NCBI GenBank assembly: GCA_021786945.1
Contig: JAJYMK010000003.1
Span: forward strand, 457,471 to 521,470
Length of the DNA stretch: 64,000 nt
Direction of reading: 5' to 3'
From: a bacterium
Lineage (GTDB): Bacteria; Patescibacteriota; Minisyncoccia; UBA6257; 02-FULL-45-10c
How positions within the stretch are numbered: position 1 is the first letter of the stretch; every line of letters starts with the position of its first letter. A program made the translations under genes and the position numbers. Under the pieces are notes generated by a model. That model did no database searches and was not told the origin of the DNA. It worked only from the letters and a program-made list of their open reading frames with translations. Shown in pieces: positions 1-63,608 of the stretch.

Positions 1-148
1 CTTCGGGATACTGTAAATTTTATACATAACATGCGTCATTCAGGCTCGGAGTAGATTTATACACCTTCGCCCTCATTCCTTGTTCTGTATAAAATTTACT
101 TGTATCGCGTTTGGAAGCTATTAGCAGGATAAGTTTTAAGGAGGCGTT

Positions 149-6485: not shown

Positions 6486-6520
6486 ACAAAAACCCCTCAT
6501 TAAATGAGGGGTTTTAAAAA
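6486..6520. terminator. bidirectional intrinsic terminator
   Basis: hairpin AACCCCTCAT-TAAA-TGAGGGGTT between convergent genes. Confidence 0.65.
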
Positions 6521-6528
6521 TTTTTAGA

Positions 6529-9500
6529 TTAAGGAGTATATTTCATAATCGCCTTTGTTCCTCCGCTTGTCTGCACTCTAAACTTAGAGGCTGAAGAATC
6601 CGATGGATCAACAAGTTTAATATTATAAATAGGTGCGCCGCTACTATATAGCGAAGTTATTTCCGATGGTGATAGTGCCCTGTTATAAATTCTGACTTCG
6701 TCTAATTTTCCATCCAAAGTCCTACCGGAAAGTGAATACGGATCGCTACCGATAGCTATTGGATTTCCCTGATAAACAGGCAAAAGACTTGTATTTATAT
6801 AGTTATCCAAAGCCCCGTTAATATACAACGCCATATAATTTGCCGAATAATCATAAGTTCCCACAACATGATACCACTGACCAACGCCTAATTTCGTCAC
6901 GCTATTCACACCAATCCAGGTATAACCAGGATAGTAATATTCCGATACGTTTAAGGTTCCGTCTGGCGATATAGGCATAGAAAAATCATCATAATATTGA
7001 TTAACGAGTCGGGGAGCAAACACGAATGATTGGGTAGCGCTATTTCTGTAGACCCAGGCGGCCAGTGTCCATTTACCGTTAAGAGTTAAACTGGAAGTTC
7101 TTGGAACCGAAACATAAGAATCTACACCATCAAAAGTCAAACCCCCATTTATCTTTCCCGCGATTGTCCAAGTCGGACCATTTATAAGTGTTCCATTATT
7201 GTTATTGCCCGAAGAATCAGCCGCCGACAATCCCGTGCCCTCATCAAATTTCCAATACCCAACTAATCCAGAGGTAGGAGCTGTGGATTTAGCAACCTGT
7301 AATGGAGATGCCTCACTTGTATCGCAAGCAAAAGCAATTACCGCAGTTCCATCGTAAGCCCTCATACCGCAATCAACAGCCAAAGCAGCAATAGTTATGG
7401 TTGGTTCGGTAACGGTATATTTCCTAATACGAATATTATCCCAATAGGAATCATGCGCTGTGCCGCCATCGGAAATTAAACCTATATTTCCACCATTATT
7501 TGAAAATGTAAATGTTGGTGTATAATCTGTACCGTTTATATTTATCTGCGCGGCTGTTCCGGTTAAAGTCAATTTCAATTTATACCAAGTATTAAGAGCT
7601 GGCGAAAAACCCGTATCAGATCCAACTGACCAGCCATTCCAACTGGATGTTGTATACCAATTTGAGTGATCCCCTGTCCCGGTATTGGTATCAAAGTTAA
7701 AAGCCTGTCCCGTACCATTATTGTTTACCAAGAAAAAGAAATCACCTATAGCCCTGCCGCTGCTAGCTAAACGCTGATTATATTCAACAATGTTGTTGGG
7801 TTTCAAACCAACATTCTTAAACATATAATTATTAACCGAAGAAAATGGCGTATCGTAAGACGGCGGGATATAACCAACTGTAATATTTTGATAAGCACCC
7901 GAGACTGTCCAGCCGCTCCTATTACTTCCATCATCCCAATAAATAAAAGTGCTTGGGCCATCAGATCCAGGCGTGGCATTGGAATTGCCGTAATACATAT
8001 AAATAGTTTTATTGGCGGAGCCCGCAATAACCGGCACCTTAACCCAAACTTTTTTATCGGACTCTATCCAATACGGATAGCTAAAATTCCAAGTCTCATC
8101 ATTTAAATTACTAGAATCCGAAAACCTTAAATCATCAAAATTCAATTCCGCTTTTGAAGCATTGTAAAAATTTGATATATCTGCCGCCGATAAAGCCGCG
8201 TTAAATACCTTAACCTCGTCAATATAGCCATTAAAATACCACTCTAAAATATCAGGTCTAGCTCCAATAGCATTGATTGTACTCCCAGTAATATTTGGAG
8301 ACATTGCCAAAGAACTTCCACTAGCCGATCCGTCAACATAAAGCTGAACAGACGAACCATTATAAACAGCTGAAACAAAGTGCCACGCACCATTGGTAAC
8401 TGTAACCGACGACGTCGGTCCTGCGACTCCGGCTAAATCAAAAGCTAATTGATTTGAGGTATTCACATAAAGCCAAAGCCCTTGACCAGTTGCTGCGCCA
8501 CCATAGTTTATAATTCCCTGACGCGCCCCAGTAGTTGAAGTTTTTATCCAGGCGCTGATAGTAAAACTTCCCGTGCCTGTATGAGGAGGTGTGGCAAAAG
8601 TAATATATTGACTACCGCCATTAAATTGAGAACAAGTTCCAAACTTACAGCTTGAAGTAGCAACCCACGTTGGGCTATTTACCAAGGTTCCATAATTATT
8701 ATTTCCGGACATATCTCCGGCATAAAGTCCTTGGCCTTCATCTAAATGCCAAGAAGCGACTACATTTGTATTGTTATAAATAGTATTGGTTATATCTACA
8801 GGAACTTGATAATCATATAAAGTACTTGAATTTGAAGTATTATTTATAGTCACAGCTCTTTTGGTTGTAAAAGAAACTTTATTTTGCTCAGCATATAAAG
8901 AAGTAGTAGGCTCCGTTGCTGTATATTTTCTGACTCTTACCCTATCAAATATTCCAGTTGAGGCATAACTATCAAAACCCATCTTAGAATTTCCGGTAAA
9001 CAAAGAATTGGTGTAACCACCGGAATAAACTCCATTTATTGTTAATCTATCTTGGGTTCCGGTATAAGCCAGACTGGCCGTGTGCCATACCCCCGTCGCC
9101 AAAGGCACGGTACCCACAACCGTTTCTCCGGACCAAGTACCGCCAGTACGTGATTGCCATACAAAATTGTTATCAGCATCGGTATGCCTATAAAAACGGA
9201 CTAAATTGCTAGCATCATTACCTCGCGCAACTAATTGTGGGTTTCTGCCGGTATCAGCTCTGTAAAAATCAAAATCGACAACTTTAACTGCTGGAAATAA
9301 TTGAGTTGAAAACACCGGATTATCATTTGTGCTAGCGGTGGTTAAATAACCATTAGCGATACTGGATCCGGCAACTAAAGCCCAATTAGTGGAAATATAA
9401 GGAACTACAAAATCGTCAAAAAATTGAAAAGTGTTATTTCCATCACTTTGAGCCGGAGCCGAACTATTTCCATAATACATATATATAGTCTTCTGAGTGC

Positions 9501-12500
9501 TTGCGGGAATATATGGAACTTTTACCCAAGCCTTTTTGTCCGATTCCAGCCAATATGAATAACTAGAAGCCCAGGATTGGTCGTTATATGAAGCATCATC
9601 AGAGAAACGGAGGTCGGAGTAATTTAATGAAATTTCGGAATTATTATAAAGATTGGCTATTTCTAATGGGGAAAGAGCCCGGCTATAAGTCCTAAGCTCA
9701 TCTATTGATCCCACATATGGCCTCGTTGTTCCAGAATCAAACGCGCCTAAAGAATTACCGTTGGCAATTGATTGGGTTGTTAAAGGCACTGACCCAATCG
9801 CATTTACAATACCATCGATATAAATAGAAACAACAGTCCCATTCCATGTAAAACCAACTTGATGCCAGGCGCCGTTATTAACGGTTCCTGTGCCAATAAC
9901 CGCATTGCTACCCCAATTACTCACCCTAATCGAAGTTCCCTCAAGATCAAATGAAAAAGTATTAGTTCCGGTTCTCTTTGAAAACATTATTGAATCATCC
10001 CCCGCTACTCCAGTTTGAGTGGTATTTATCCACATAAAAACGGAAAATGGGGTTCCCTGTCCGCTAATATCAAAATTACCCAACCCGACGCTGCTGGAAT
10101 TAAAATATAAAGCGTTACCATATTTTCCGGTTACCCACAAAGGACCAACTTGAACACCCCTATGATTCCTATTTTCCGATGAATCAAAAATAGTCGGTCC
10201 CGCACCTTCATCAAAATGATAATCGCTAAATAATCCTTGAGTGTTATAAAAAGCAGTCGTTAAATCTACCGGAACTTGGTAATCATAAAGCGCACTACCG
10301 GAAGTGTTATCCACTGTAATCGCCCTGCGTTTTGCGTATGTTAAATTATTCTGCTCGGAATAAACAGAAGTTGTTGGTTCGGTGGCGGTATACTTTCTAA
10401 CAAAGAAATAGGAAAAATTAGCCGCAGATGCTGTTTCGTCACGATCCACCTCTAAACCAACTCCACCGGATGTCAAAGAAGAATCCGTTGCGGATGTAGT
10501 TGTAATTGCACCGGTAATATTATTTGTTACGGTATTGGTTAAAGAAGTTCCAACAAATTTGGTAAGTATTTTATAATTCACATTAGCCGTCACTCCGCCA
10601 TTTGTAGCTAAGGTAGATAAATTTGTCCAAGTTCCGCCAACACGCTTACCTAATTCAGTACTATTGATGCTCCATGCTTCTAAATCAGCAACGTACATGT
10701 TATTGGAATCACTACTTCTGCAAATCAATGCCTTACCATAACTCCCGCCTACAGTTAAAGGAGTAATGGCAGATTCCATAATGGCATTATCAATTGAAAA
10801 TTTCTTGCTTCTTAAAACGCTAAATGTAACACCGGCTGTGCCGCTGGTAGGTATTTCCGCGCCGCTCCTATTTACAGTCCAAATATTTCCCTCTTTGTTC
10901 CACTTATCAGTAGAAATAATTCCGGTGTCGAAATCGTCGCCAAAAAGAAAAGTATTTGAAATATCACTCTGACTATCAGCGGAACTATTTCCGTAATACA
11001 TATATATTGTTTTCTGTGTTGCGGCCGGAATATACGGAACTTTTACCCAGGCTTTTTTATCCGATTCGAGCCAATAAGAAAAACTAGAATTCCAAGTTTG
11101 ATCATTGTAAGAAGAGGCATCATCGGAAAATCTTATATCATTGGAATCTATACGATTTTTTGAGGCATTGTATAAATCCGATATTTCTGCGGGAGAAAGG
11201 GCCCTATTGTAAATTCTTGGTTCATCAATTTGGCCAAGATAATATTCCGTTGTACCAAAATTACCAACCGTTAACTCATTCGGCGTCACAGCCCCATATG
11301 TATAGCCGGATATAGCCTGAACTAATACGCTATTGGCATATAACTTCGAAATTCCTAAAGAATCAACTGTTGCTACAATATATGTCCAACTCGTTGTTGA
11401 TGGAATATATGACGATTTGTTTTGCGCAGCACCATGAAGCTGGATTGATCCATCGGTTGCATGCTGATAAAGAAGCCAATTTAAACCAGCGGCTGCAGAT
11501 CTATTGCCAATAATATCCTGATATTGACCACCCAATCTTCCTGGTTTTATCCATAAAGCAACCGTCAATTCTTGTCCATTTGATTTTTGAAAAGCCGGAG
11601 TAGTTAAACGGCCATACTGACTTGAACCATTAAAACTCAGACAGGTTCCAGATTTGCATCCCGATTCCACAGTCCAGGTTGGAGAATTGTATAGGGCCAA
11701 ACTATTATTCAAACCCGAAGAATCAGCCGCTGAACTTCCCTGACCCTCATTAAAATGCCAATCGCCAATAAGACCTGTATTATTGTAGGTAGTTGTAGTT
11801 AAATCTACCGGGACTTGATAATCATAAAGTGCGCTGCCGGAAGTATTATCTATTGTAATCGCCCTGCGTTTTGAGTATGTTAAATTATCCTGCTCGCCAT
11901 AAACGGAAACTGCCGGCTCAATTGCCGCATATTTACGGACGCGAATATTATCAAAATATTGATCGGCAATATCGCCGGTAGGCTCGTTCCACCATCTTGG
12001 CAATATTAAATATCTATTTGTTCCAAAAGTTATACTCTGAGTACCGCCAACTTGAATGTCGTCCTTATAAAATCCGACATTGGAACCATTCAGGATAATT
12101 TTATAGTTATTAAAAGTATTCAAGGCATAACTTCCGACGCTTCCCTGCAATAAAGTCCAAGCGCCAGGAGCTCTTTTATACAAACTGAAAGTGCTTGTTG
12201 TAAAAAACGGCCAAAAACCATTGCCATCTGCCTGATTTGAATCCATAATTCCAAGGTTTACATTATGCCCGGAAGCAATGCTTACCGTTTTTGCTGAGTA
12301 ATCAACAATAAAATCCCCATTAACTGCTATGGCTGATTGCAGGGATTTTACCGGAACGGTTCCGTCTTGATAAGACCTTAGCTGTCCACTGGAGGCAGAA
12401 ATAACATCGCTTGCCGTACCCGCACTTACCAGCCATTTATTAGAATCTATAGTACCACTATTAAAATCATCACCAAAAATAAATGTATTGGAAATGCTGC

Positions 12501-13500
12501 TCAAACTAGTGGCATCAGACTTCCCATAATACATATATATAGTGTCTTGAGTATTTGCCGGAATAGACGGAACTTTTACCCAAGATTTTTTATCAGATTC
12601 CTGCCAAAAATTAAGCAATGTACTTCCGTCACTATCAGCAAACCTAACATCTCCATAATCAAGGCGAGCTTTCGTACCAAGATATTGACTATAAACTTCA
12701 GAAGCCGAAAGGGCACGATTATAAATTCTAACTTCATCAACCATACCTTTCCATCGTCTATCTACAGTTGTGGCAAATCCGGTACCGATAGCAAAATTTG
12801 AAATTGTGCTCGGCCAATAAGTATTCGTTCCGGAAAAAACCCTAGTACCATTTAAATATCCTTCATGCCAACTTCTTGAAGTATCCCAAATATAAACAAT
12901 ATGATACCAAGTATTGATCTGCATCCCAGAAGGAATGTAATTAAAACTCGTATAAGTTCCGGCATCGTTTCCGGTTAAACCGCCAAAAGTACCAGAAGCA
13001 TTTTCTTCAAATCTTATTCCTACATTTGAACCATCAAGCTTTGTGGCTAAAGGGTTGTGATAATTTTCCATTACGGAGGCATTTACCCAAAAAGATAATG
13101 TCCCCTGAGTAGGAAAGGATCCCAAGCTTCCGGCTGAGATATAGCTACTACCATCAAAATTTCTGGCATTTCCATATTTACCAGCAACAATTGTTGTTCC
13201 AACAACCGTACCATTATAGCCATTACCAGATGAGTCAGAAGCAATTGATCCAGAACTTTCATTTAAATGCCAGCTTCCCAGCAAACCAGTTTCATTGTAA
13301 ATAGCATTTGTTGTATCTACGCCAACCTGATAATCAGTTAAAGCACTTCCGGCTGTATTGTCTATTGTAATCGCGCGCCTATTTGACCAGCCCGTAAGCC
13401 AGGCGGCTTCTGCCTTTGAAAAAGGCAAAAACCCTGCAAGCAGGGTTATGGCAAAGAAAGATACTATTGTTAATTTATTTCTGTTCATCTCCGGCTCCAA
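6529..13500 (-). CDS. giant secreted repeat protein (2323 aa): signal peptide plus four modules of split DUF2341 with nested LamG-like jelly-roll, and a fifth C-terminal LamG-like domain
   Basis: Signal peptide MEPEMNRNKLTIVSFFAITLLAGFLPFSKAEA. Recurring (R/K)RAITIDNTSGSALYDYQVPVDL ... WHxxEGxG ... (I/V/L)DExR(I/T)YNRALSxxEI..LY ... D(I/L)RFSDD ... YW(L/I)ESDKK(A/S/V)WVKVPxIPAxTQKTIYMYYGNS. DNA-level repeats at ~8.0, 9.5, 11.0, 12.5 kb. Confidence 0.8.
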   Translation of the reverse strand: MEPEMNRNKLTIVSFFAITLLAGFLPFSKAEAAWLTGWSNRRAITIDNTAGSALTDYQVGVDTTNAIYNETGLLGSWHLNESSGSIASDSSGNGYNGTVVGTTIVAGKYGNARNFDGSSYISAGSLGSFPTQGTLSFWVNASVMENYHNPLATKLDGSNVGIRFEENASGTFGGLTGNDAGTYTSFNYIPSGMQINTWYHIVYIWDTSRSWHEGYLNGTRVFSGTNTYWPSTISNFAIGTGFATTVDRRWKGMVDEVRIYNRALSASEVYSQYLGTKARLDYGDVRFADSDGSTLLNFWQESDKKSWVKVPSIPANTQDTIYMYYGKSDATSLSSISNTFIFGDDFNSGTIDSNKWLVSAGTASDVISASSGQLRSYQDGTVPVKSLQSAIAVNGDFIVDYSAKTVSIASGHNVNLGIMDSNQADGNGFWPFFTTSTFSLYKRAPGAWTLLQGSVGSYALNTFNNYKIILNGSNVGFYKDDIQVGGTQSITFGTNRYLILPRWWNEPTGDIADQYFDNIRVRKYAAIEPAVSVYGEQDNLTYSKRRAITIDNTSGSALYDYQVPVDLTTTTYNNTGLIGDWHFNEGQGSSAADSSGLNNSLALYNSPTWTVESGCKSGTCLSFNGSSQYGRLTTPAFQKSNGQELTVALWIKPGRLGGQYQDIIGNRSAAAGLNWLLYQHATDGSIQLHGAAQNKSSYIPSTTSWTYIVATVDSLGISKLYANSVLVQAISGYTYGAVTPNELTVGNFGTTEYYLGQIDEPRIYNRALSPAEISDLYNASKNRIDSNDIRFSDDASSYNDQTWNSSFSYWLESDKKAWVKVPYIPAATQKTIYMYYGNSSADSQSDISNTFLFGDDFDTGIISTDKWNKEGNIWTVNRSGAEIPTSGTAGVTFSVLRSKKFSIDNAIMESAITPLTVGGSYGKALICRSSDSNNMYVADLEAWSINSTELGKRVGGTWTNLSTLATNGGVTANVNYKILTKFVGTSLTNTVTNNITGAITTTSATDSSLTSGGVGLEVDRDETASAANFSYFFVRKYTATEPTTSVYSEQNNLTYAKRRAITVDNTSGSALYDYQVPVDLTTAFYNTQGLFSDYHFDEGAGPTIFDSSENRNHRGVQVGPLWVTGKYGNALYFNSSSVGLGNFDISGQGTPFSVFMWINTTQTGVAGDDSIMFSKRTGTNTFSFDLEGTSIRVSNWGSNAVIGTGTVNNGAWHQVGFTWNGTVVSIYIDGIVNAIGSVPLTTQSIANGNSLGAFDSGTTRPYVGSIDELRTYSRALSPLEIANLYNNSEISLNYSDLRFSDDASYNDQSWASSYSYWLESDKKAWVKVPYIPASTQKTIYMYYGNSSAPAQSDGNNTFQFFDDFVVPYISTNWALVAGSSIANGYLTTASTNDNPVFSTQLFPAVKVVDFDFYRADTGRNPQLVARGNDASNLVRFYRHTDADNNFVWQSRTGGTWSGETVVGTVPLATGVWHTASLAYTGTQDRLTINGVYSGGYTNSLFTGNSKMGFDSYASTGIFDRVRVRKYTATEPTTSLYAEQNKVSFTTKRAVTINNTSNSSTLYDYQVPVDITNTIYNNTNVVASWHLDEGQGLYAGDMSGNNNYGTLVNSPTWVATSSCKFGTCSQFNGGSQYITFATPPHTGTGSFTISAWIKTSTTGARQGIINYGGAATGQGLWLYVNTSNQLAFDLAGVAGPTSSVTVTNGAWHFVSAVYNGSSVQLYVDGSASGSSLAMSPNITGSTINAIGARPDILEWYFNGYIDEVKVFNAALSAADISNFYNASKAELNFDDLRFSDSSNLNDETWNFSYPYWIESDKKVWVKVPVIAGSANKTIYMYYGNSNATPGSDGPSTFIYWDDGSNRSGWTVSGAYQNITVGYIPPSYDTPFSSVNNYMFKNVGLKPNNIVEYNQRLASSGRAIGDFFFLVNNNGTGQAFNFDTNTGTGDHSNWYTTSSWNGWSVGSDTGFSPALNTWYKLKLTLTGTAAQININGTDYTPTFTFSNNGGNIGLISDGGTAHDSYWDNIRIRKYTVTEPTITIAALAVDCGMRAYDGTAVIAFACDTSEASPLQVAKSTAPTSGLVGYWKFDEGTGLSAADSSGNNNNGTLINGPTWTIAGKINGGLTFDGVDSYVSVPRTSSLTLNGKWTLAAWVYRNSATQSFVFAPRLVNQYYDDFSMPISPDGTLNVSEYYYPGYTWIGVNSVTKLGVGQWYHVVGTYDYSANYMALYINGALDNYINTSLLPVYQGNPIAIGSDPYSLSGRTLDGKLDEVRIYNRALSPSEITSLYSSGAPIYNIKLVDPSDSSASKFRVQTSGGTKAIMKYTP
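7990..12610 (-). repeat. intragenic ~1.5-kb tandem repeat modules inside the giant gene
   Basis: near-identical segments, e.g. ccataatacatatatatagt...acttttacccaagcctttttgtccgattc, at ~7992, ~9473, ~10992, ~12525. Confidence 0.7.
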
Positions 13501-13546
13501 ATTTTTTAATTCGTATTATTCGTAATATTTAATAAATATTCGTATT

Positions 13547-14608
13547 TTACAGGTCTGTCCTTATCCAAATTTGTCCAACGACAGGAGAAGCCGGATCGGA
13601 AGTTCTGTTTTCAATAACTAATCCACCAAGAGCCTTGATCGTTCCTTTTCCGCTGTCTACCTGAATTGCCGCGCCACCGCCGGCATTAGCAGCATAAATA
13701 GCGGGGTTGCTCGCACTGGTAGTTTCAATTTTTGCGCCGCTGTTTGCCGAAGTTTGAGAGCCAATGGTAAGTTTATAATTTGTATCTGGGGAAGTTTGGT
13801 TTATACCCACAACGCCCCTGCTTGCCGCCAATATCGCTCCATTTTCTGTATATAAAGCCGTTCGAGTATTTGTTGTTGAATCGCTACTAGAGCCATAAGC
13901 ACTACCATTACCTATATAAAGAACAGCGTTTGAGCTTGGAAATGTTAAAGTCGTATTTAAAGAAACGTGCGTATTTTGATTTGGGTAGGCGGTTACATCA
14001 TCAACAACTCCTGTAACAATAGCATTTTGGGGTCCGCTTCCACCGCCATTTCTTTTGGTATTTATAGCTAAACTTCCACCCCAATTCGCTCCATTATAAG
14101 ATGTAATTGAGTTAATAATATTTCCACTAGAATAATTTGACCTGAAATTAATAGACTGGTTTGTAGAAAGCGCGCCTAAAATTGTAAGGCTTCCTTGTTC
14201 AATATGTAATTTATCATAAGGCGTAGCTGTTCCAATACCAATATTGCCAGATCCCCTAAAAAGATATCCTCCAGAATCCCCATCTTCACCAAAATATAAA
14301 TTCGCCGAACCAATTCCCCTATTAATTACTCCAGCAACTGTAGTACCACCTTTAAAATAAATCCTTCCATAAGTAACACCGTCACCAATATCAATATTTC
14401 CACCAACGACATTTAATTTAGAAGTTGGACTCGCCGTTCCAATACCCACATTACCACTGCTTACACTAATCGCGCCCGCACCGGAAGAAGGATTGGCCGA
14501 GGGATTTGTCCATGCATAAGAAATTTGAAAAACTAAAACCAAAATTAAACTAATTAATAAAATTGTAGTGGATATTTTCCAAAAATTTATTTTTTTGCTA
14601 GTTTCCAT
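13547..14608 (-). CDS. secreted glycine-rich protein with tail-fibre-like beta-helix motifs
   Basis: N-terminal signal-anchor (…QISYA/WTNP); repeated GN(V/I)GIGTA(S/T)P..KL motifs; 46-nt gap to giant gene on same strand (likely co-transcribed). Confidence 0.5.
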   Translation of the reverse strand: METSKKINFWKISTTILLISLILVLVFQISYAWTNPSANPSSGAGAISVSSGNVGIGTASPTSKLNVVGGNIDIGDGVTYGRIYFKGGTTVAGVINRGIGSANLYFGEDGDSGGYLFRGSGNIGIGTATPYDKLHIEQGSLTILGALSTNQSINFRSNYSSGNIINSITSYNGANWGGSLAINTKRNGGGSGPQNAIVTGVVDDVTAYPNQNTHVSLNTTLTFPSSNAVLYIGNGSAYGSSSDSTTNTRTALYTENGAILAASRGVVGINQTSPDTNYKLTIGSQTSANSGAKIETTSASNPAIYAANAGGGAAIQVDSGKGTIKALGGLVIENRTSDPASPVVGQIWIRTDL

Positions 14609-14691: not shown

Positions 14692-15087
14692 TTAACGGAA
14701 CTTCTGAATAAATTCCCCGCCCCTTCTTTTACGCTCAAGATAATTAATAAAACCCCCAATCTGTGCTGATAATTTTTCTAAATCATCGCTTAAATTTTTA
14801 AAAATTTCTTCATTAATATACCCGACAGTAAAAGAAATCAATAATTGATTTCTAACTTCCCCAGAAGAGCCTTTTGCCATTTTTAAAAATCTAATAAATT
14901 CATTGTTATTATTCTTTTCAAAACCCTCAACTATATTTGAACTTATCGAAACAGAGGCTCTTCTTATTTGATCTCTCAAACCAAAATCTTTTGAAAAATT
15001 TCCATGGGAAACAATGGCATAGATTTCTTTGGTTATTTTCATACTTAGTTTCCAAATCTCCAAATCTTCAAACTTATTTATTTTCAT
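14692..15087 (-). CDS. four-helix-bundle protein (TIGR02436; 23S rRNA intervening-sequence protein family)
   Basis: FEDLEIWKLSMKITKEIY ... LRDQIRRASVSISSNIVEGF ... GSSGEVRNQL signature of the family; 131 aa. Confidence 0.75.
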   Translation of the reverse strand: MKINKFEDLEIWKLSMKITKEIYAIVSHGNFSKDFGLRDQIRRASVSISSNIVEGFEKNNNNEFIRFLKMAKGSSGEVRNQLLISFTVGYINEEIFKNLSDDLEKLSAQIGGFINYLERKRRGGEFIQKFR

Positions 15088-15855: not shown

Positions 15856-15888
15856 CATCCCGCACTTGATGCGGGATCCAGGTTCTTA
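15856..15888. repeat. hairpin motif TTGTCATCCCGC-loop-GCGGGATCCAG (copy 1); bidirectional terminator between convergent genes
   Basis: 7-bp stem ATCCCGC/GCGGGAT; inverted counterpart at 16180-16210. Confidence 0.55.
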
Positions 15889-16170
15889 TAATTCTTCATA
15901 TAAATCCTTCCAATTAGGATTTTTATTTTCAATAAGTTTCAATTTCCAAGCACGATTCCATTTCTTTAGTTGCTTTTCTCTGGTTATAGCCGCATCAACA
16001 TTTGATGTTTCTTCAAAATAAACAAGGGAATGCACTTCATACCTACTTGTAAATCCCTCTACAATATCATTTTTGTGCTGCCATACCCTTTTCTTTAAAT
16101 TATTAGTAACACCAACATACAAAGTACCATTTCTCTTACTCGTCATTATATAAACATAATAAGAATTCAT
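15886..16170 (-). CDS. GIY-YIG nuclease family protein (small stand-alone, UPF0213/YhbQ-like)
   Basis: YYVYIMTSKRNGTLYVGVTNNLKKRVWQH (GIY...YVG motif), conserved R and E downstream; 94 aa. Confidence 0.8.
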   Translation of the reverse strand: MNSYYVYIMTSKRNGTLYVGVTNNLKKRVWQHKNDIVEGFTSRYEVHSLVYFEETSNVDAAITREKQLKKWNRAWKLKLIENKNPNWKDLYEEL

Positions 16171-16924: not shown

Positions 16925-18352
16925 TTATAAAATAAACGACTTCAGCTCAATAAATTTAGCGCTTAACAAACTTTGATTATTTGCCTCCAGATTCAATCTT
17001 AGTAAATTTTCGGAATTAGAAAATCTCAGGCTAAACCACCACTTCCCATCAACGGAATCAAATTCCATTAACAATCCGTCTGTTTCAATTATTTTTTGAG
17101 CCGATTTTTTATAAAAATTTTTTAATCTGACTAATTTTTTCTCAAAAATTTTTTTATCTTTTATTTCAAAATTAGTTTCTTCAATCTGATAATATCGCGG
17201 GAGTACGTCCAAGTATTCAGAAAAATTATTTTTTAACTTAACCACAAAGTTGATTATTTCCAAAGCAGCCAAAATACCACTGTCGCAATAAAAAAACTTT
17301 TTGAAGTAATAATGTCCCGATCGCTCCATTCCCAAATTCGCTTTTTTATTCCTCATCATTTCCTTCATAAACAAATGGCCGACTTTCGATACAAAAGTAC
17401 CTCTTATATTTTTTACGCGACTGCTACTAATAGTAGAAACAACAAATGGCGGTTTATTTTTATTCGTTAATATAAAACCAACAGCGTCCGGATCAACTTG
17501 TCTTCCTAGATTATCCATAAAAAACACCCTGTCTCCGTCTCCGTCAAAAATAATTCCCAAATCGGCTTTTTGTTTTACAACAACTTCCTTAAGCCTATCC
17601 AAAGATCCCGCAACAAGCGGATTGGGGCTATGAGCCGGAAAATTTCCGTTTGGTTTTTCGTTCAAAAAAACAGCGGTTATCTTTTTATTGCTCTTAAATA
17701 AATTTTTCAACACCATTCCCGTTGTCCCACTTGAACAATCAACGACGATTTTAAGCTTTCGTGAAACCTTAAGATGTTTTTTTAAAAAACTTGCATATAC
17801 TTTTAAAGAATAGGGCGCTGGCTTATTTAAAAACTTTGTAGCCAAATGAGCATGTCGACTAAACCTAACTTTTTGAAATGAGTGTGATGAAAAACCAGTA
17901 AGTGAATTGGCTGTAATAAGCGAAGCGGCCTGGGAAGATACAAAAACCTTATTCATAACTTCCCGTCCGCTTATCGGTATCGCCCCCCTCCCCATTATTT
18001 TTAGACCATTGTATTCCTTGGGATTATGCGACGCAGTAACAATTATCCCACCGTCTGCCTTAAATTTATTGACCAAAAAATAAATCTCCGGAGTAGTAGC
18101 CAATCCGGCTTCGATTATTTTTATTTTTTTAAAAGACTTTCCTGGTTGGATTTCTTTTAATGCGGCTAAAACTGATTTATATAATTCCGGAGAACTTAGG
18201 CGCGCATCGTGCCCTACAACGATGTTTTTTTTAAAAATCGCGCTAATTCCGGAAACAATCTTAAAAACAACTTGTTTGTTTATCTCCAAAGGATATATAC
18301 CTCTTATATCATTTGCCTTAAAAATATTTTTATCCAAAAAAATAGGCTCCAT
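16925..18352 (-). CDS. phosphoglucomutase/phosphomannomutase (alpha-D-phosphohexomutase)
   Basis: active-site serine loop GGIIVTASHNPKEYNGLK, metal-binding FDGDGDR, 475 aa four-domain layout. Confidence 0.85.
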   Translation of the reverse strand: MEPIFLDKNIFKANDIRGIYPLEINKQVVFKIVSGISAIFKKNIVVGHDARLSSPELYKSVLAALKEIQPGKSFKKIKIIEAGLATTPEIYFLVNKFKADGGIIVTASHNPKEYNGLKIMGRGAIPISGREVMNKVFVSSQAASLITANSLTGFSSHSFQKVRFSRHAHLATKFLNKPAPYSLKVYASFLKKHLKVSRKLKIVVDCSSGTTGMVLKNLFKSNKKITAVFLNEKPNGNFPAHSPNPLVAGSLDRLKEVVVKQKADLGIIFDGDGDRVFFMDNLGRQVDPDAVGFILTNKNKPPFVVSTISSSRVKNIRGTFVSKVGHLFMKEMMRNKKANLGMERSGHYYFKKFFYCDSGILAALEIINFVVKLKNNFSEYLDVLPRYYQIEETNFEIKDKKIFEKKLVRLKNFYKKSAQKIIETDGLLMEFDSVDGKWWFSLRFSNSENLLRLNLEANNQSLLSAKFIELKSFIL

Positions 18353-18410: not shown

Positions 18411-19013
18411 ATGAAATTCGAAAACCTTTCTGTAAAAGAAGTGGCCAGGGTAATGTCCCCGCTTTTAAAAAGAAACTTCCGGGAATGGAAGAATCTTAAA
18501 AAGCAGGTAATGCTCAAAAGCAAAATAAGTTTTTGCGACAAAGACGACGAAAAAATAGAAAAGCTTCTTTCGTCTGAACCCATGGCGCTGTTCTATGCTC
18601 ACTGGCTTAAATTCGAAAACCTGCAGGACGGCAAAGAAAAACTCGAAGAAAAAATAATCAGCTACATCAAGGGTTTATTCGGCAAAGAACTGAAAGATGA
18701 AAAAAGCGTTGAAAGACTTTATTCAAAATGCAGCTTGATAGCGGGTGTCAGCCGCATAAAAACAATCAAAATGATAGAAGCGGCTGTGGCTATGCAAGAT
18801 CTGATGAATAAGGACTTTCGGGAAATATTCGAAAATAAAAACGCCTACAAAGTAATCATTAAAAGCGCTTTAAAGGCCGAGGACTGGAAACTTTCTCAGT
18901 CTATTTTACTAGGGTGGATATCCCACTTCGAAATAGATCAGGAAAACGTCCTGGATTTCTACCGCATAAGCAACGTAATCATAGAAAAAAGAGAAAAAGA
19001 AATTTTCTCCTAA
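18411..19013 (+). CDS. hypothetical protein (200 aa)
   Basis: ORF with AAAGGAGG SD; terminator hairpin at 19023-19048; no family recognised. Confidence 0.5.
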   Translation: MKFENLSVKEVARVMSPLLKRNFREWKNLKKQVMLKSKISFCDKDDEKIEKLLSSEPMALFYAHWLKFENLQDGKEKLEEKIISYIKGLFGKELKDEKSVERLYSKCSLIAGVSRIKTIKMIEAAVAMQDLMNKDFREIFENKNAYKVIIKSALKAEDWKLSQSILLGWISHFEIDQENVLDFYRISNVIIEKREKEIFS

Positions 19014-33920: not shown

Positions 33921-33928
33921 GCCGCGCA

Positions 33929-34072
33929 AGCAGCCGCAGAGCAGAGAGAGACAATGCGGAAAAGCCTATGAAGCCCGACAAAATAGTGGCTAAGTAGGTC
34001 GGCTACGGAGCCGAAGTGTAGTAAGCCCCGCATCATCCAACAAAACACGGATGGTGCGGGGCCTTTTTTTAT
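33929..34072 (+). repeat. conserved 144-nt 3' element (copy 1) ending in long-stem intrinsic terminator
   Basis: 142/144 identical to 34571-34714; internal hairpins GCCCGAC...GTCGGC and CGGCT-ACGG-AGCCG; terminator stem CCCCGCATCATCC/GGATGGTGCGGGG + T7. Confidence 0.75.
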
Positions 34073-34495: not shown

Positions 34496-34570
34496 GTAAA
34501 CCAGGCCGATAGCGGCACGCAGCGTAGTTGCAGCGAAAGAAAAAGCAGCAAAAACGCAGTGAAAGAGAAA

Positions 34571-34714
34571 AGCAGCCGCAGAGCAGAGAGAGACAATGCG
34601 GAAAAGCCTATGAAGCCCGACAAAATAGTGGCTAAGTAGGTCGGCTACGGAGCCGCAGTGTAGTACGCCCCGCATCATCCAACAAAACACGGATGGTGCG
34701 GGGCCTTTTTTTAT
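34571..34714 (+). repeat. conserved 144-nt 3' element (copy 2) ending in long-stem intrinsic terminator
   Basis: Differs from copy 1 at two positions only (ccgAagtg/ccgCagtg; gtaAgcc/gtaCgcc). Confidence 0.75.
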
Positions 34715-49940: not shown

Positions 49941-50075
49941 TTCTATATACTAAATTGTCGTGGAGAAGATTCGGAGCTCCGACATGCTTGGTTCCGATGT
50001 CGGAGTGAGACTCAGGAGTTGTTCCGCGCCGGACGGAACAAACTCCGATTCTCGTAGACAATTTAGTATATAGAA
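49941..50075. repeat. MITE-like hairpin-rich repeat element, copy A (~135 bp, perfect 19-bp terminal inverted repeats)
   Basis: TIR TTCTATATACTAAATTGTC / GACAATTTAGTATATAGAA; internal hairpins CTCCGACATGCTTGGTTCCGATGTCGGAG and GGAGTTGTTCCG...CGGAACAAACTCC; core ~95% identical to reverse complement of 63490-63604. Confidence 0.7.
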
Positions 50076-63450: not shown

Positions 63451-63483
63451 GACCATAATTATTATTTAACCTTAACTACTCTA

Positions 63484-63608
63484 CACACCGAATTGTCTAC
63501 GAGAATCGGAGTTTGTTCCGTCCAGCGCGGAACAACTCCTGAGTCTCGCTCCGACATCGGAACCGAGCATGTCGGAGCTCCGAATCTTCTCCACGACAAT
63601 TTGGTGTG
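63484..63608. repeat. MITE-like hairpin-rich repeat element, copy B (inverted relative to copy A)
   Basis: TIR CACACCGAATTGTC / GACAATTTGGTGTG (1 mismatch); core ~95% identical to reverse complement of copy A. Confidence 0.7.

Follow-up and report, generated by a model that had tools for sequence, protein, structure and literature searches.

A giant DUF2341/LamG protein with a tail-fibre-like partner in a Patescibacteriota genome: a predicted secreted, multi-headed binding protein

The Giant Gene and Its Product

How ultrasmall bacteria of the candidate phyla radiation (CPR; Patescibacteria) recognise and attach to their hosts is poorly understood, and giants built of LamG and DUF2341 domains are among their most conspicuous unexplained genes. 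We analysed one such gene, here called the giant, together with the gene preceding it, the partner, in a stretch of 64,000 nucleotides (the window) from a bacterium of the Minisyncoccia (Patescibacteriota; UBA6257; 02-FULL-45-10c; GenBank assembly GCA_021786945.1, contig JAJYMK010000003.1, positions 457,471 to 521,470). The partner-giant pair is syntenic in four related Minisyncoccota/Patescibacteria loci: L002, L005, L007 (from a Minisyncoccota metagenome-assembled genome) and L008. The synteny with this Minisyncoccota relative likewise puts the window within the CPR.

The original prediction, made from the sequence alone, described a giant surface protein of 2323 amino acids (aa), and the open reading frame (ORF) was borne out: the ORF list gives 2323 codons counted from a TTG (6529..13500, minus strand). 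An ATG at 13488, four codons inside this frame and with GGAG 4 nt ahead of it, is the likely start and yields 2319 aa. This product is identical to the NCBI/Logan protein P0001, encoded on a 696,638-bp contig, and the same 2319 aa are encoded on an independently assembled 16-kb Logan contig (SRR22746137_28475).

Both Pfam families proposed for the giant passed their gathering cut-offs, and the repeats were not assigned to unrelated families. Laminin_G_3 (PF13385) scored 361.5 bits over 5 stretches (cut-off 27.6 bits) and DUF2341 (PF10102) 219.7 bits over 4 stretches (cut-off 23.4 bits); the best LamG_3 stretch by Pfam lies at 2124-2281 (TTG numbering), and the best DUF2341 stretch, aa 281-357, covers model positions 1-82 of 84.

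A Kyte-Doolittle scan of the whole protein revealed a single hydrophobic segment, located at the N-terminus and followed by AEA|AW. This agrees with the signal peptide expected earlier and makes Sec-type secretion plausible, with cleavage predicted from the hydropathy and the AEA|AW motif. The N-terminus is kept in the relatives L002, L005, P0003 and P0004. Neither Pfam nor hydropathy analysis revealed a C-terminal transmembrane segment, a sortase motif or an S-layer homology (SLH) motif in the giant, and Pfam and NCBIfam identified no catalytic family. Its content is all beta, made up of lectin or carbohydrate-binding-module (CBM)-like domains.

Module Architecture

Four modules of about 500 aa had been proposed, and motif positions combined with local hidden Markov models (HMMs) cut from alignment A1 (19 modules) support them and set their borders (Table 1). 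The modules start at aa 33, 537, 1050 and 1539, and each consists of N strands, LamG, a DUF2341 C-part and a further domain, JR3, which was absent from the first description. The N strands comprise ~33 aa (RRAITIDN...DYQVPVD), LamG_3 206-211 aa, the C-part 57-64 aa (DxRF...YWLESDKKAWVKVP...YMYYGN) and JR3 178-196 aa, nearly 40% of every module. By local HMM, the five LamG_3 domains of the protein occupy aa 66-276, 570-780, 1083-1288, 1573-1782 and 2072-2286. When the N-terminal 279 aa of the TTG ORF were searched, Pfam placed the LamG_3 of module 1 at aa 112-265 and the beginning of DUF2341 at DVRF.

Table 1. Positions of the features described at the locus, in window coordinates.
Feature	Position	Strand	Details
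Giant gene	6529..13488	(-)	2319 aa from ATG at 13488; stop codon 6529-6531
Sec signal peptide, predicted	13405..13488	(-)	aa 1-28: MNRNK, hydrophobic core, AEA|AW
Module 1	11908..13392	(-)	aa 33-527; N-strands 13294-13392, LamG_3 12661-13293, DUF2341 C-part 12490-12660, JR3 11908-12489
Module 2	10369..11880	(-)	aa 537-1040; N-strands 11782-11880, LamG_3 11149-11781, DUF2341 C-part 10957-11148, JR3 10369-10956
Module 3	8902..10341	(-)	aa 1050-1529; N-strands 10243-10341, LamG_3 9625-10242, DUF2341 C-part 9436-9624, JR3 8902-9435
Module 4	7396..8874	(-)	aa 1539-2031; N-strands 8773-8874, LamG_3 8143-8772, DUF2341 C-part 7954-8142, JR3 7396-7953
Cap domain split by fifth LamG_3	6532..7395	(-)	MAFFT alignment with L002g, L005g, P0003
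Cap, first half	7276-7395	(-)	aa 2032-2071
Fifth LamG_3	6631-7275	(-)	aa 2072-2286
Cap, second half	6532-6630	(-)	aa 2287-2319
Spacer between partner and giant	13489..13546	(-)	58 nt, AT-rich; ribosome-binding site GGAG 13495-13498
Partner gene	13547..14608	(-)	353 aa, Gly/Ser/Thr-rich
Partner C-terminal module	13550..13657	(-)	~35 aa, ...GGLVIENRTSDPASPVVGQIWIRTDL-COOH
Hairpin	6489..6515	.	12-bp stem, A-/T-run flanks, between convergent giant and flippase stops
IVP gene, stand-alone 23S rRNA intervening-sequence protein (PF05635)	14692-15087	(-)	Pfam
Small GIY-YIG gene	15886-16170	(-)	Just upstream of the pair

JR3 has no significant Pfam family. Several lines point to a second, divergent concanavalin A (ConA)-like jelly roll: hhalign gave a 91% probability against the LamG profile, 3 of 8 JR3 sequences showed weak Laminin_G_3 matches, the JR3 of module 3 matched Laminin_G_3 below threshold (E=5.8e-4), and AlphaFold2 modelled the domain as all-beta. 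The nearest solved structure is the CBM66 of levanase, at a non-significant E=0.04.

An AlphaFold2 model of module 2 (pLDDT 77.3, pTM 0.70) is nearly all beta, with two short helices; it gives the N strands a beta-strand assignment at pLDDT 85-92, and the DUF2341 C-part reaches 88-95. LamG matches to solved structures range from E 3e-26 (S-layer protein 4qvs) to 1e-10 and include arabinanase 5ho0 and the Hc fragments of tetanus and botulinum neurotoxins (TeNT/BoNT). A whole-module Foldseek search against the PDB returned LamG-type matches alone (TeNT/BoNT Hc, 7e-12) and nothing informative on DUF2341. Identity between the modules of the giant is 67% for the N strands and 62% for the C-part, compared with 32% for LamG and 29% for JR3: the giant is a set of nine variable jelly-roll heads (5 LamG and 4 JR3) on a conserved backbone.

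A DUF2341 Scaffold Split by LamG

In the original prediction, each DUF2341 domain was split into two halves by a nested LamG. This does not apply to the Pfam model, since positions 1-82 of 84 of PF10102 fall wholly C-terminal to LamG in the giant; it does apply to the structural domain, which is larger than the Pfam model. A profile built solely from contiguous domains matches the giant as eight complementary half-matches, two per module. The N halves extend from profile position 3 to 32..42 (iE 5e-7 to 9e-6) and the post-LamG halves from 28-34 to 102-105 (iE 1e-17 to 1e-19); in module 1 these are aa 33-62 (profile 3-32) and aa 268-331 (profile 34-102).

The contiguous DUF2341 of P0003, modelled together with 18 other contiguous domains, formed one six-strand unit including both N strands (pLDDT 90.4, pTM 0.80). 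Modelling of one module had been suggested as a check, and in the model of module 2 the secondary-structure elements follow the order of the contiguous domain, with LamG between the halves. Judging from profiles and models, LamG is a predicted whole-domain insertion in the loop joining strands 2 and 3 of the scaffold. Contiguous domains usually carry a pair of cysteines (SDC...ESGC) around this loop, and the inserted form lacks both.

The two forms are also distinct in homologues. The distance from the N-strand motif (W-x-Y-R-K-x-I-T-I...DYQV in relatives) to DxRF is bimodal, with 32-64 aa in 25 modules (one of which, P0002 at aa 553, was later dropped as a false N-motif match) and 230-257 aa in 28, and none in between. 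Of the domains in the best 120 homologues, 90 (in 67 proteins) are contiguous and 40 (in 19 proteins) are split, the latter with a gap of 188-230 aa between the halves; six proteins hold both kinds. The arrangement had been called not commonly described. That is accurate for the literature, as the DUF2341-mentioning papers searched describe neither the split topology of the scaffold nor a second jelly roll nor the partner gene, and inaccurate for databases, where the split form is recurrent, Planctomycetes included. Large proteins of phages, archaeal viruses and giant viruses also have the DUF2341 fold, in some cases together with LamG. An isolated DUF2341 model had no convincing solved relative, the best being an alpha-mannosidase beta-sandwich domain (E=0.014).

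A fifth LamG is present at the C-terminus, as predicted; rather than simply following the modules, it sits inside a cap domain of ~75 aa (...A-L-A-x-x-C-G...VSKGG-STYGVKLVD...RIQTSxGTKAIxKY). The cap is contiguous in L002g, L005g and P0003 (...VSKGG|STYGVKLVD...), and the LamG of the window is one ~216-aa insertion in it. All five LamG_3 domains would therefore be loop insertions, in two unrelated host domains.

Exchange of Modules and Cargo

The modules had further been expected to appear as ~1.5-kb DNA repeats prone to recombination. This was not confirmed: the giant gene contains only 178-198-nt patches of 60-77% identity, spaced ~1.5 kb apart and matching the stretches that encode the conserved halves of DUF2341, and no exact repeat of at least 24 nt. 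Given such weak patches and the lack of exact repeats, present-day recombination between modules or assembly collapse is unlikely. A long, internally repetitive ORF in a metagenome-type assembly might nevertheless owe its structure to collapsed or expanded repeats. We find this hardly credible here: beyond the low DNA similarity, the modules are only 40-48% identical at the protein level, the frame is intact over 6.9 kb, the independent Logan assembly yields an identical product, and relatives have the same module order.

Over evolutionary time, modules and cargo do appear to be shuffled, as judged from sequence comparison. The best between-protein module matches are off-position (win_M1/P0003_M2 69%, win_M3/P0004_M3 62%, L002g_M4/P0004_M2 74%). 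The proposed comparison of related genomes revealed differing numbers and cargo, with four modules plus the cap LamG in the window, five modules in L002, and four with a plain cap in L005. In two of its five modules, L002 carries another, Gly-rich cargo in place of JR3. P0002, P0003 and P0004 have a Gly-rich GGxGG domain after the DUF2341 C-part (PF21722 Gly_rich_2 on record), P0069 has fibrinogen-like sequence there (a reading by eye, with no Pfam match on record), and L002g (L002 10961-20149) ends in a Fib_succ-type domain behind the cap. Across relatives, variable cargo occupies the slot behind the DUF2341 C-part.

The Partner Gene

A co-oriented, Gly-rich secreted protein had been noted 46 nt from the giant; this distance holds from the TTG and becomes 58 nt when counted from the ATG. 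The spacer yielded no terminator-like site, and the two genes are probably co-transcribed. The partner begins with a hydrophobic helix followed by SYA|WTNP and, in agreement with the original prediction, carries two tail-fibre-like GN(V/I)GIGTAxP motifs, at aa 52 and 121. The partner itself has no Pfam, PHROG or NCBIfam match and no chaperone domain.

Homologues of the partner immediately precede the giant in L002, L005 and L008; in L007 the homologue is two genes upstream, with a gene for a 23S rRNA intervening-sequence protein (IVP) in between. The syntenic partners measure 303, 814 (L005), 209 (L007) and 147 aa. The L005 protein matches the tail-fibre family phrog_9942 (E=4e-34), the L007 locus also encodes an 828-aa protein with the same repeats and a C-terminal Peptidase_S74 (3.7e-14), and many distant partner matches end in S74 or G2 chaperone domains. 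Through these matches of its relatives, the partner can be classed as tail-fibre-like.

The partner ends in a module of its own that is covered by no Pfam family. In the syntenic partners this module is 68-84% identical (consensus ...ETRTSDPxSPVxGQIWLRTDL-COOH). It recurs in 305 cluster representatives (E<=0.001), almost always as their very C-terminal end, and the 150 listed range from 44 to 1670 aa. The module is also found away from DUF2341 giants (L010, L011) and therefore does not define the pair on its own. A scan of genome contigs with the partner returned a single distant Wolfebacteria locus, with no giant gene adjoining.

Such relatives raise the question of whether the pair is a receptor-binding module domesticated from a phage, or belongs to a prophage or tailocin, with the partner as a true tail fibre and the giant as its distal binder. 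The repeats that the partner family has in common with tail fibres, the S74 or G2 ends of related proteins, the DUF2341 fold in large viral proteins, and the small selfish-looking genes (GIY-YIG and IVP) just upstream would all fit. Such an origin is nonetheless very improbable, given that the flanks are housekeeping genes (FtsK, RecA, PGM, TrxR) syntenic across genomes, that a scan of 23 window ORFs turned up no capsid, terminase, baseplate or integrase gene, and that the window partner has no PHROG match. Moreover, both proteins have Sec-type N-termini, normally absent in virion proteins.

Genomic Context and Divergence of the Pair

The loci share a gene order which, on the upstream side, comprises FtsK, a ~200-aa protein, PGM and, further on, a 3'-5' exonuclease-like gene, then optional small IVP and GIY-YIG genes, the partner and the giant. 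Beyond the giant follow a convergent flippase, an epimerase or Bac_transf, and then DsbA, Grx and TrxR.

Within this conserved backbone, the pair has diverged strongly. Between the window and L002, amino acid identity is 97.6% for RecA, 97.4% for the exonuclease and 86.5% for FtsK, versus 38% for the giant and 41% for the partner. L005 and L008 show the same contrast; overall, the pair is 35-43% identical, against 86-98% for RecA. By these comparisons, the pair is a hypervariable island in a conserved backbone, and that it diverges so much faster than its flanks fits a role in host or ligand recognition. Two neighbours are also divergent: PGM (L002 7205-8608 vs window 16925-18352) is only 60% identical and the ~200-aa protein (L002 6532-7137 vs window 18411-19013) only 51%. 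Since the exonuclease gene, 97% identical, lies between these two and the pair, conservation along the locus is a mosaic.

A priming sugar transferase, an epimerase and a Wzx flippase had been placed upstream of the giant and joined with it into one surface apparatus. Bac_transf (+), epimerase (-) and a Wzx-like flippase (+) are indeed adjacent to the giant (-), but past its 3' end. The hairpin between the convergent giant and flippase stops is likely a bidirectional terminator; promoter-like and terminator-like counts were not above shuffled expectation, and only this hairpin was used. With the sugar genes beyond the 3' end, on alternating strands and behind the hairpin, neither an operon nor a joint apparatus with the giant is supported. 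The flippase, epimerase and transferase neighbourhood is kept in the window and in L008; L005 keeps flippase and transferase without the epimerase, and the L002 locus stops inside the flippase gene.

This partly kept neighbourhood could suggest that the giant is a glycan-capturing or S-layer-associated envelope protein whose jelly rolls bind nutrient glycans or those of its own surface. The solved structures closest to its LamG, S-layer protein 4qvs and then the C-terminal LamG of a GH43 arabinanase, point the same way, as does the weak likeness of JR3 to CBM66. The CBM66 match is, however, non-significant, the giant was found to contain no SLH, other wall-binding or catalytic domain, the sugar genes stand on other strands behind a terminator, and extreme divergence between close relatives is unexpected for a housekeeping envelope component. 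We therefore rate an envelope role as rather improbable.

The IVP gene adjoins the giant upstream in L007 and is absent in L002 and L005. PF05635 is the family that includes Avd of diversity-generating retroelements, and on this ground we considered the locus as a target of such an element. This candidate was rejected, as there is no template/variable (TR/VR)-like repeat at the locus (whole window searched) and no reverse transcriptase among the scanned ORFs. Rfam identified only tRNAs in the window.

Two other repeats were observed elsewhere in the window. A 145-nt direct repeat (33928-34072 and 34570-34714; 99% identical, 642 nt apart) lies beside a tRNA cluster at 31.6-35.9 kb. A 126-nt inverted repeat (49949-50074 and 63480-63605; 94% complementary, arms 13.4 kb apart) brackets a block with, among others, the genes for aspartate-semialdehyde dehydrogenase, aspartokinase/homoserine dehydrogenase, trigger factor and PNPase.

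Relatives Linked to Type IV Pili

Some relatives of the giant are encoded beside type IV pilus (T4P) genes. P0009 (Patescibacteria) contains the same N-strand/LamG/DUF2341/JR3 module at aa 1105-1600, and its gene lies inside a T4P operon, with a prepilin directly before it and PilM, PilO, two T2SSE ATPases and PilC after it. The prepilin (KRG|FTLIE; N_methyl E=4.6e-7) carries a phage phiTE_241_C domain. The P0091 gene is located 4 nt behind a prepilin-like gene (60% identical), and P0044 is preceded by another phiTE_241_C protein.

In L012 (4787-5989) and L015 (5837-6997), prepilin-type proteins (G|FTLIE / G|FTLVE) combine C-terminal tail-fibre-like motifs (YYNTxSNxLRxFNGTxWS, GGNVGI) with Phage_phiTE_241_C, and their genes lie 4-12 nt upstream of a DUF2341/LamG gene. 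From their sequences, these proteins appear to be pilins fused to a phage-fibre-like tip.

The giant might accordingly be a PilY1-like tip adhesin on type IV pili encoded elsewhere in the genome. PilY1 carries an ordinary signal peptide, as the giant is predicted to do. In addition to the positions of the P0009 and P0091 genes, published work supports a pilus link at the family level: DUF2341 proteins in archaeal T4P loci are proposed tip adhesins (PMC4858521), a screen for transformation defects in Methanococcus maripaludis yielded transposon insertions in the DUF2341 gene within its epd pilus locus (PMC10133366), and DUF2341, noted in giant Patescibacteria proteins, has been annotated there as a T4P-like component (PMC11809585). 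The locus itself does not share this context. Neither the window ORFs scanned nor L002, L005, L007 and L008 revealed a pilus gene, and the partner lacks the G|FTLIE prepilin motif, having a single GNVGI motif in common with the pilin-type partners (E=0.004 in one pairwise comparison). Display on a type IV pilus is the main rival explanation, favoured by the context of the family and not by that of the window, and we judge it unlikely. After it, the envelope role, the domesticated phage module and the assembly artefact are progressively less likely.

Proposed Function

We favour, with moderate confidence, the interpretation of the giant as a non-enzymatic binding protein with many heads that a CPR bacterium secretes by the Sec route, acting as an adhesin or lectin array. 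The protein would be displayed outside the cell and bind its ligand through the nine jelly-roll heads, with the partner serving as a stalk or docking element, and the partner-giant locus would set the specificity of attachment to a host cell or another surface. We propose an attachment determinant because rapid divergence and the shuffling of modules and cargo are expected of one.

Several points weigh against this interpretation. The binding, localisation and expression of the giant are predictions; a jelly-roll fold neither proves lectin activity nor tells which ligand is bound. No anchoring element was seen in the giant, which could simply be released. An interaction between partner and giant is suggested by adjacency and by synteny among fairly close relatives, and any non-essential secreted protein also typically diverges fast. 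Finally, the split of DUF2341 in the window's module is read from profile matches and strand order, not from strand pairing.

A broader and more tentative proposal is that partner and giant act as a two-gene cassette for host recognition, common to CPR and some other bacteria. In it, a fibre- or pilin-like stalk would present the giant, whose conserved DUF2341 and cap scaffolds would accept LamG jelly rolls as exchangeable heads inserted in loops, and the swapping of modules and cargo at this one hypervariable locus would set host range. A fibre-like or pilin-like gene lies upstream of the giant in 7 of the 9 loci examined (directly in six, at a distance of two genes in L007), a pattern compatible with such a cassette; four of the seven loci are syntenic with the window. 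In phages, receptor-binding proteins set host range, and the giant would play the same part in the cassette.

Whichever ligand the multi-headed binder may recognise, the locus supplies a domain map with exact borders usable for expression constructs, and evidence for DUF2341 as a scaffold that tolerates whole-domain insertions. It also has a conserved partner gene, and its signature of a hypervariable island points to a specificity determinant; altogether it is a clean, testable example.

Comparison with Known Systems

The closest counterparts of the giant are DUF2341 giants of Patescibacteria/CPR (PMC11809585; P0003, P0009, P0015 and P0075 among others), which resemble it in Pfam content, size class, Sec-type N-terminus and phylum. 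P0003 (Minisyncoccota, GCA_054641955.1) is syntenic and 47% identical over the best BLASTP alignment, which covers 35% of the query. The giant is one of these proteins, and nothing essential differs.

The archaeal T4P DUF2341 proteins (arCOG03508; MMJJ_08210) and PilY1 of Pseudomonas aeruginosa are likewise large, secreted and of proposed attachment role, with DUF2341 as a shared domain (PMC4858521, PMC10133366). Unlike them, the giant stands, in the window and the four syntenic loci, apart from pilus genes, and its partner is no prepilin.

Among solved LamG/ConA-like lectins (4qvs, 5ho0/5hon, tetanus/botulinum Hc-N, neurexin LNS, pentraxins), profile and fold are similar to those of the giant's ~210-aa LamG; there, LamG is terminal or tandem, whereas in the giant it is a predicted loop insertion in another domain. 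Phage tail fibres with GNVGIGT-type repeats (phrog_9942, phrog_18345; S74 PF13884, G2 PF11962) have the repeat in common with the partner family, from which the window partner differs in having two repeats, no chaperone, a Sec-type N-terminus and its own ~35-aa C-terminal module.

The haloarchaeal Tat-fimbria protein TafC (NF052521) is partially matched by the LamG parts of the giant (121.8 bits, 5 stretches). Membership was rejected: the score is far from the 410-bit cut-off, the N-terminus is of Sec and not Tat type, and the giant is bacterial. The SPEARE giant surface proteins of Nanohaloarchaeota (DPANN) contain LamG. Like the giant, they are very large, secreted and built of many domains, come from an ultrasmall symbiont and have a proposed role in host contact. 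They are mentioned in PMC9563170, which separately lists LamG-domain proteins with signal peptides in Nanohaloarchaeota. SPEARE proteins belong to another domain of life and have another domain set than the giant, a comparison made by description only.

Overall, the locus reveals no new kind of system, and the giant is one of the giant CPR surface proteins, a widespread class that is already annotated and uncharacterised in function.

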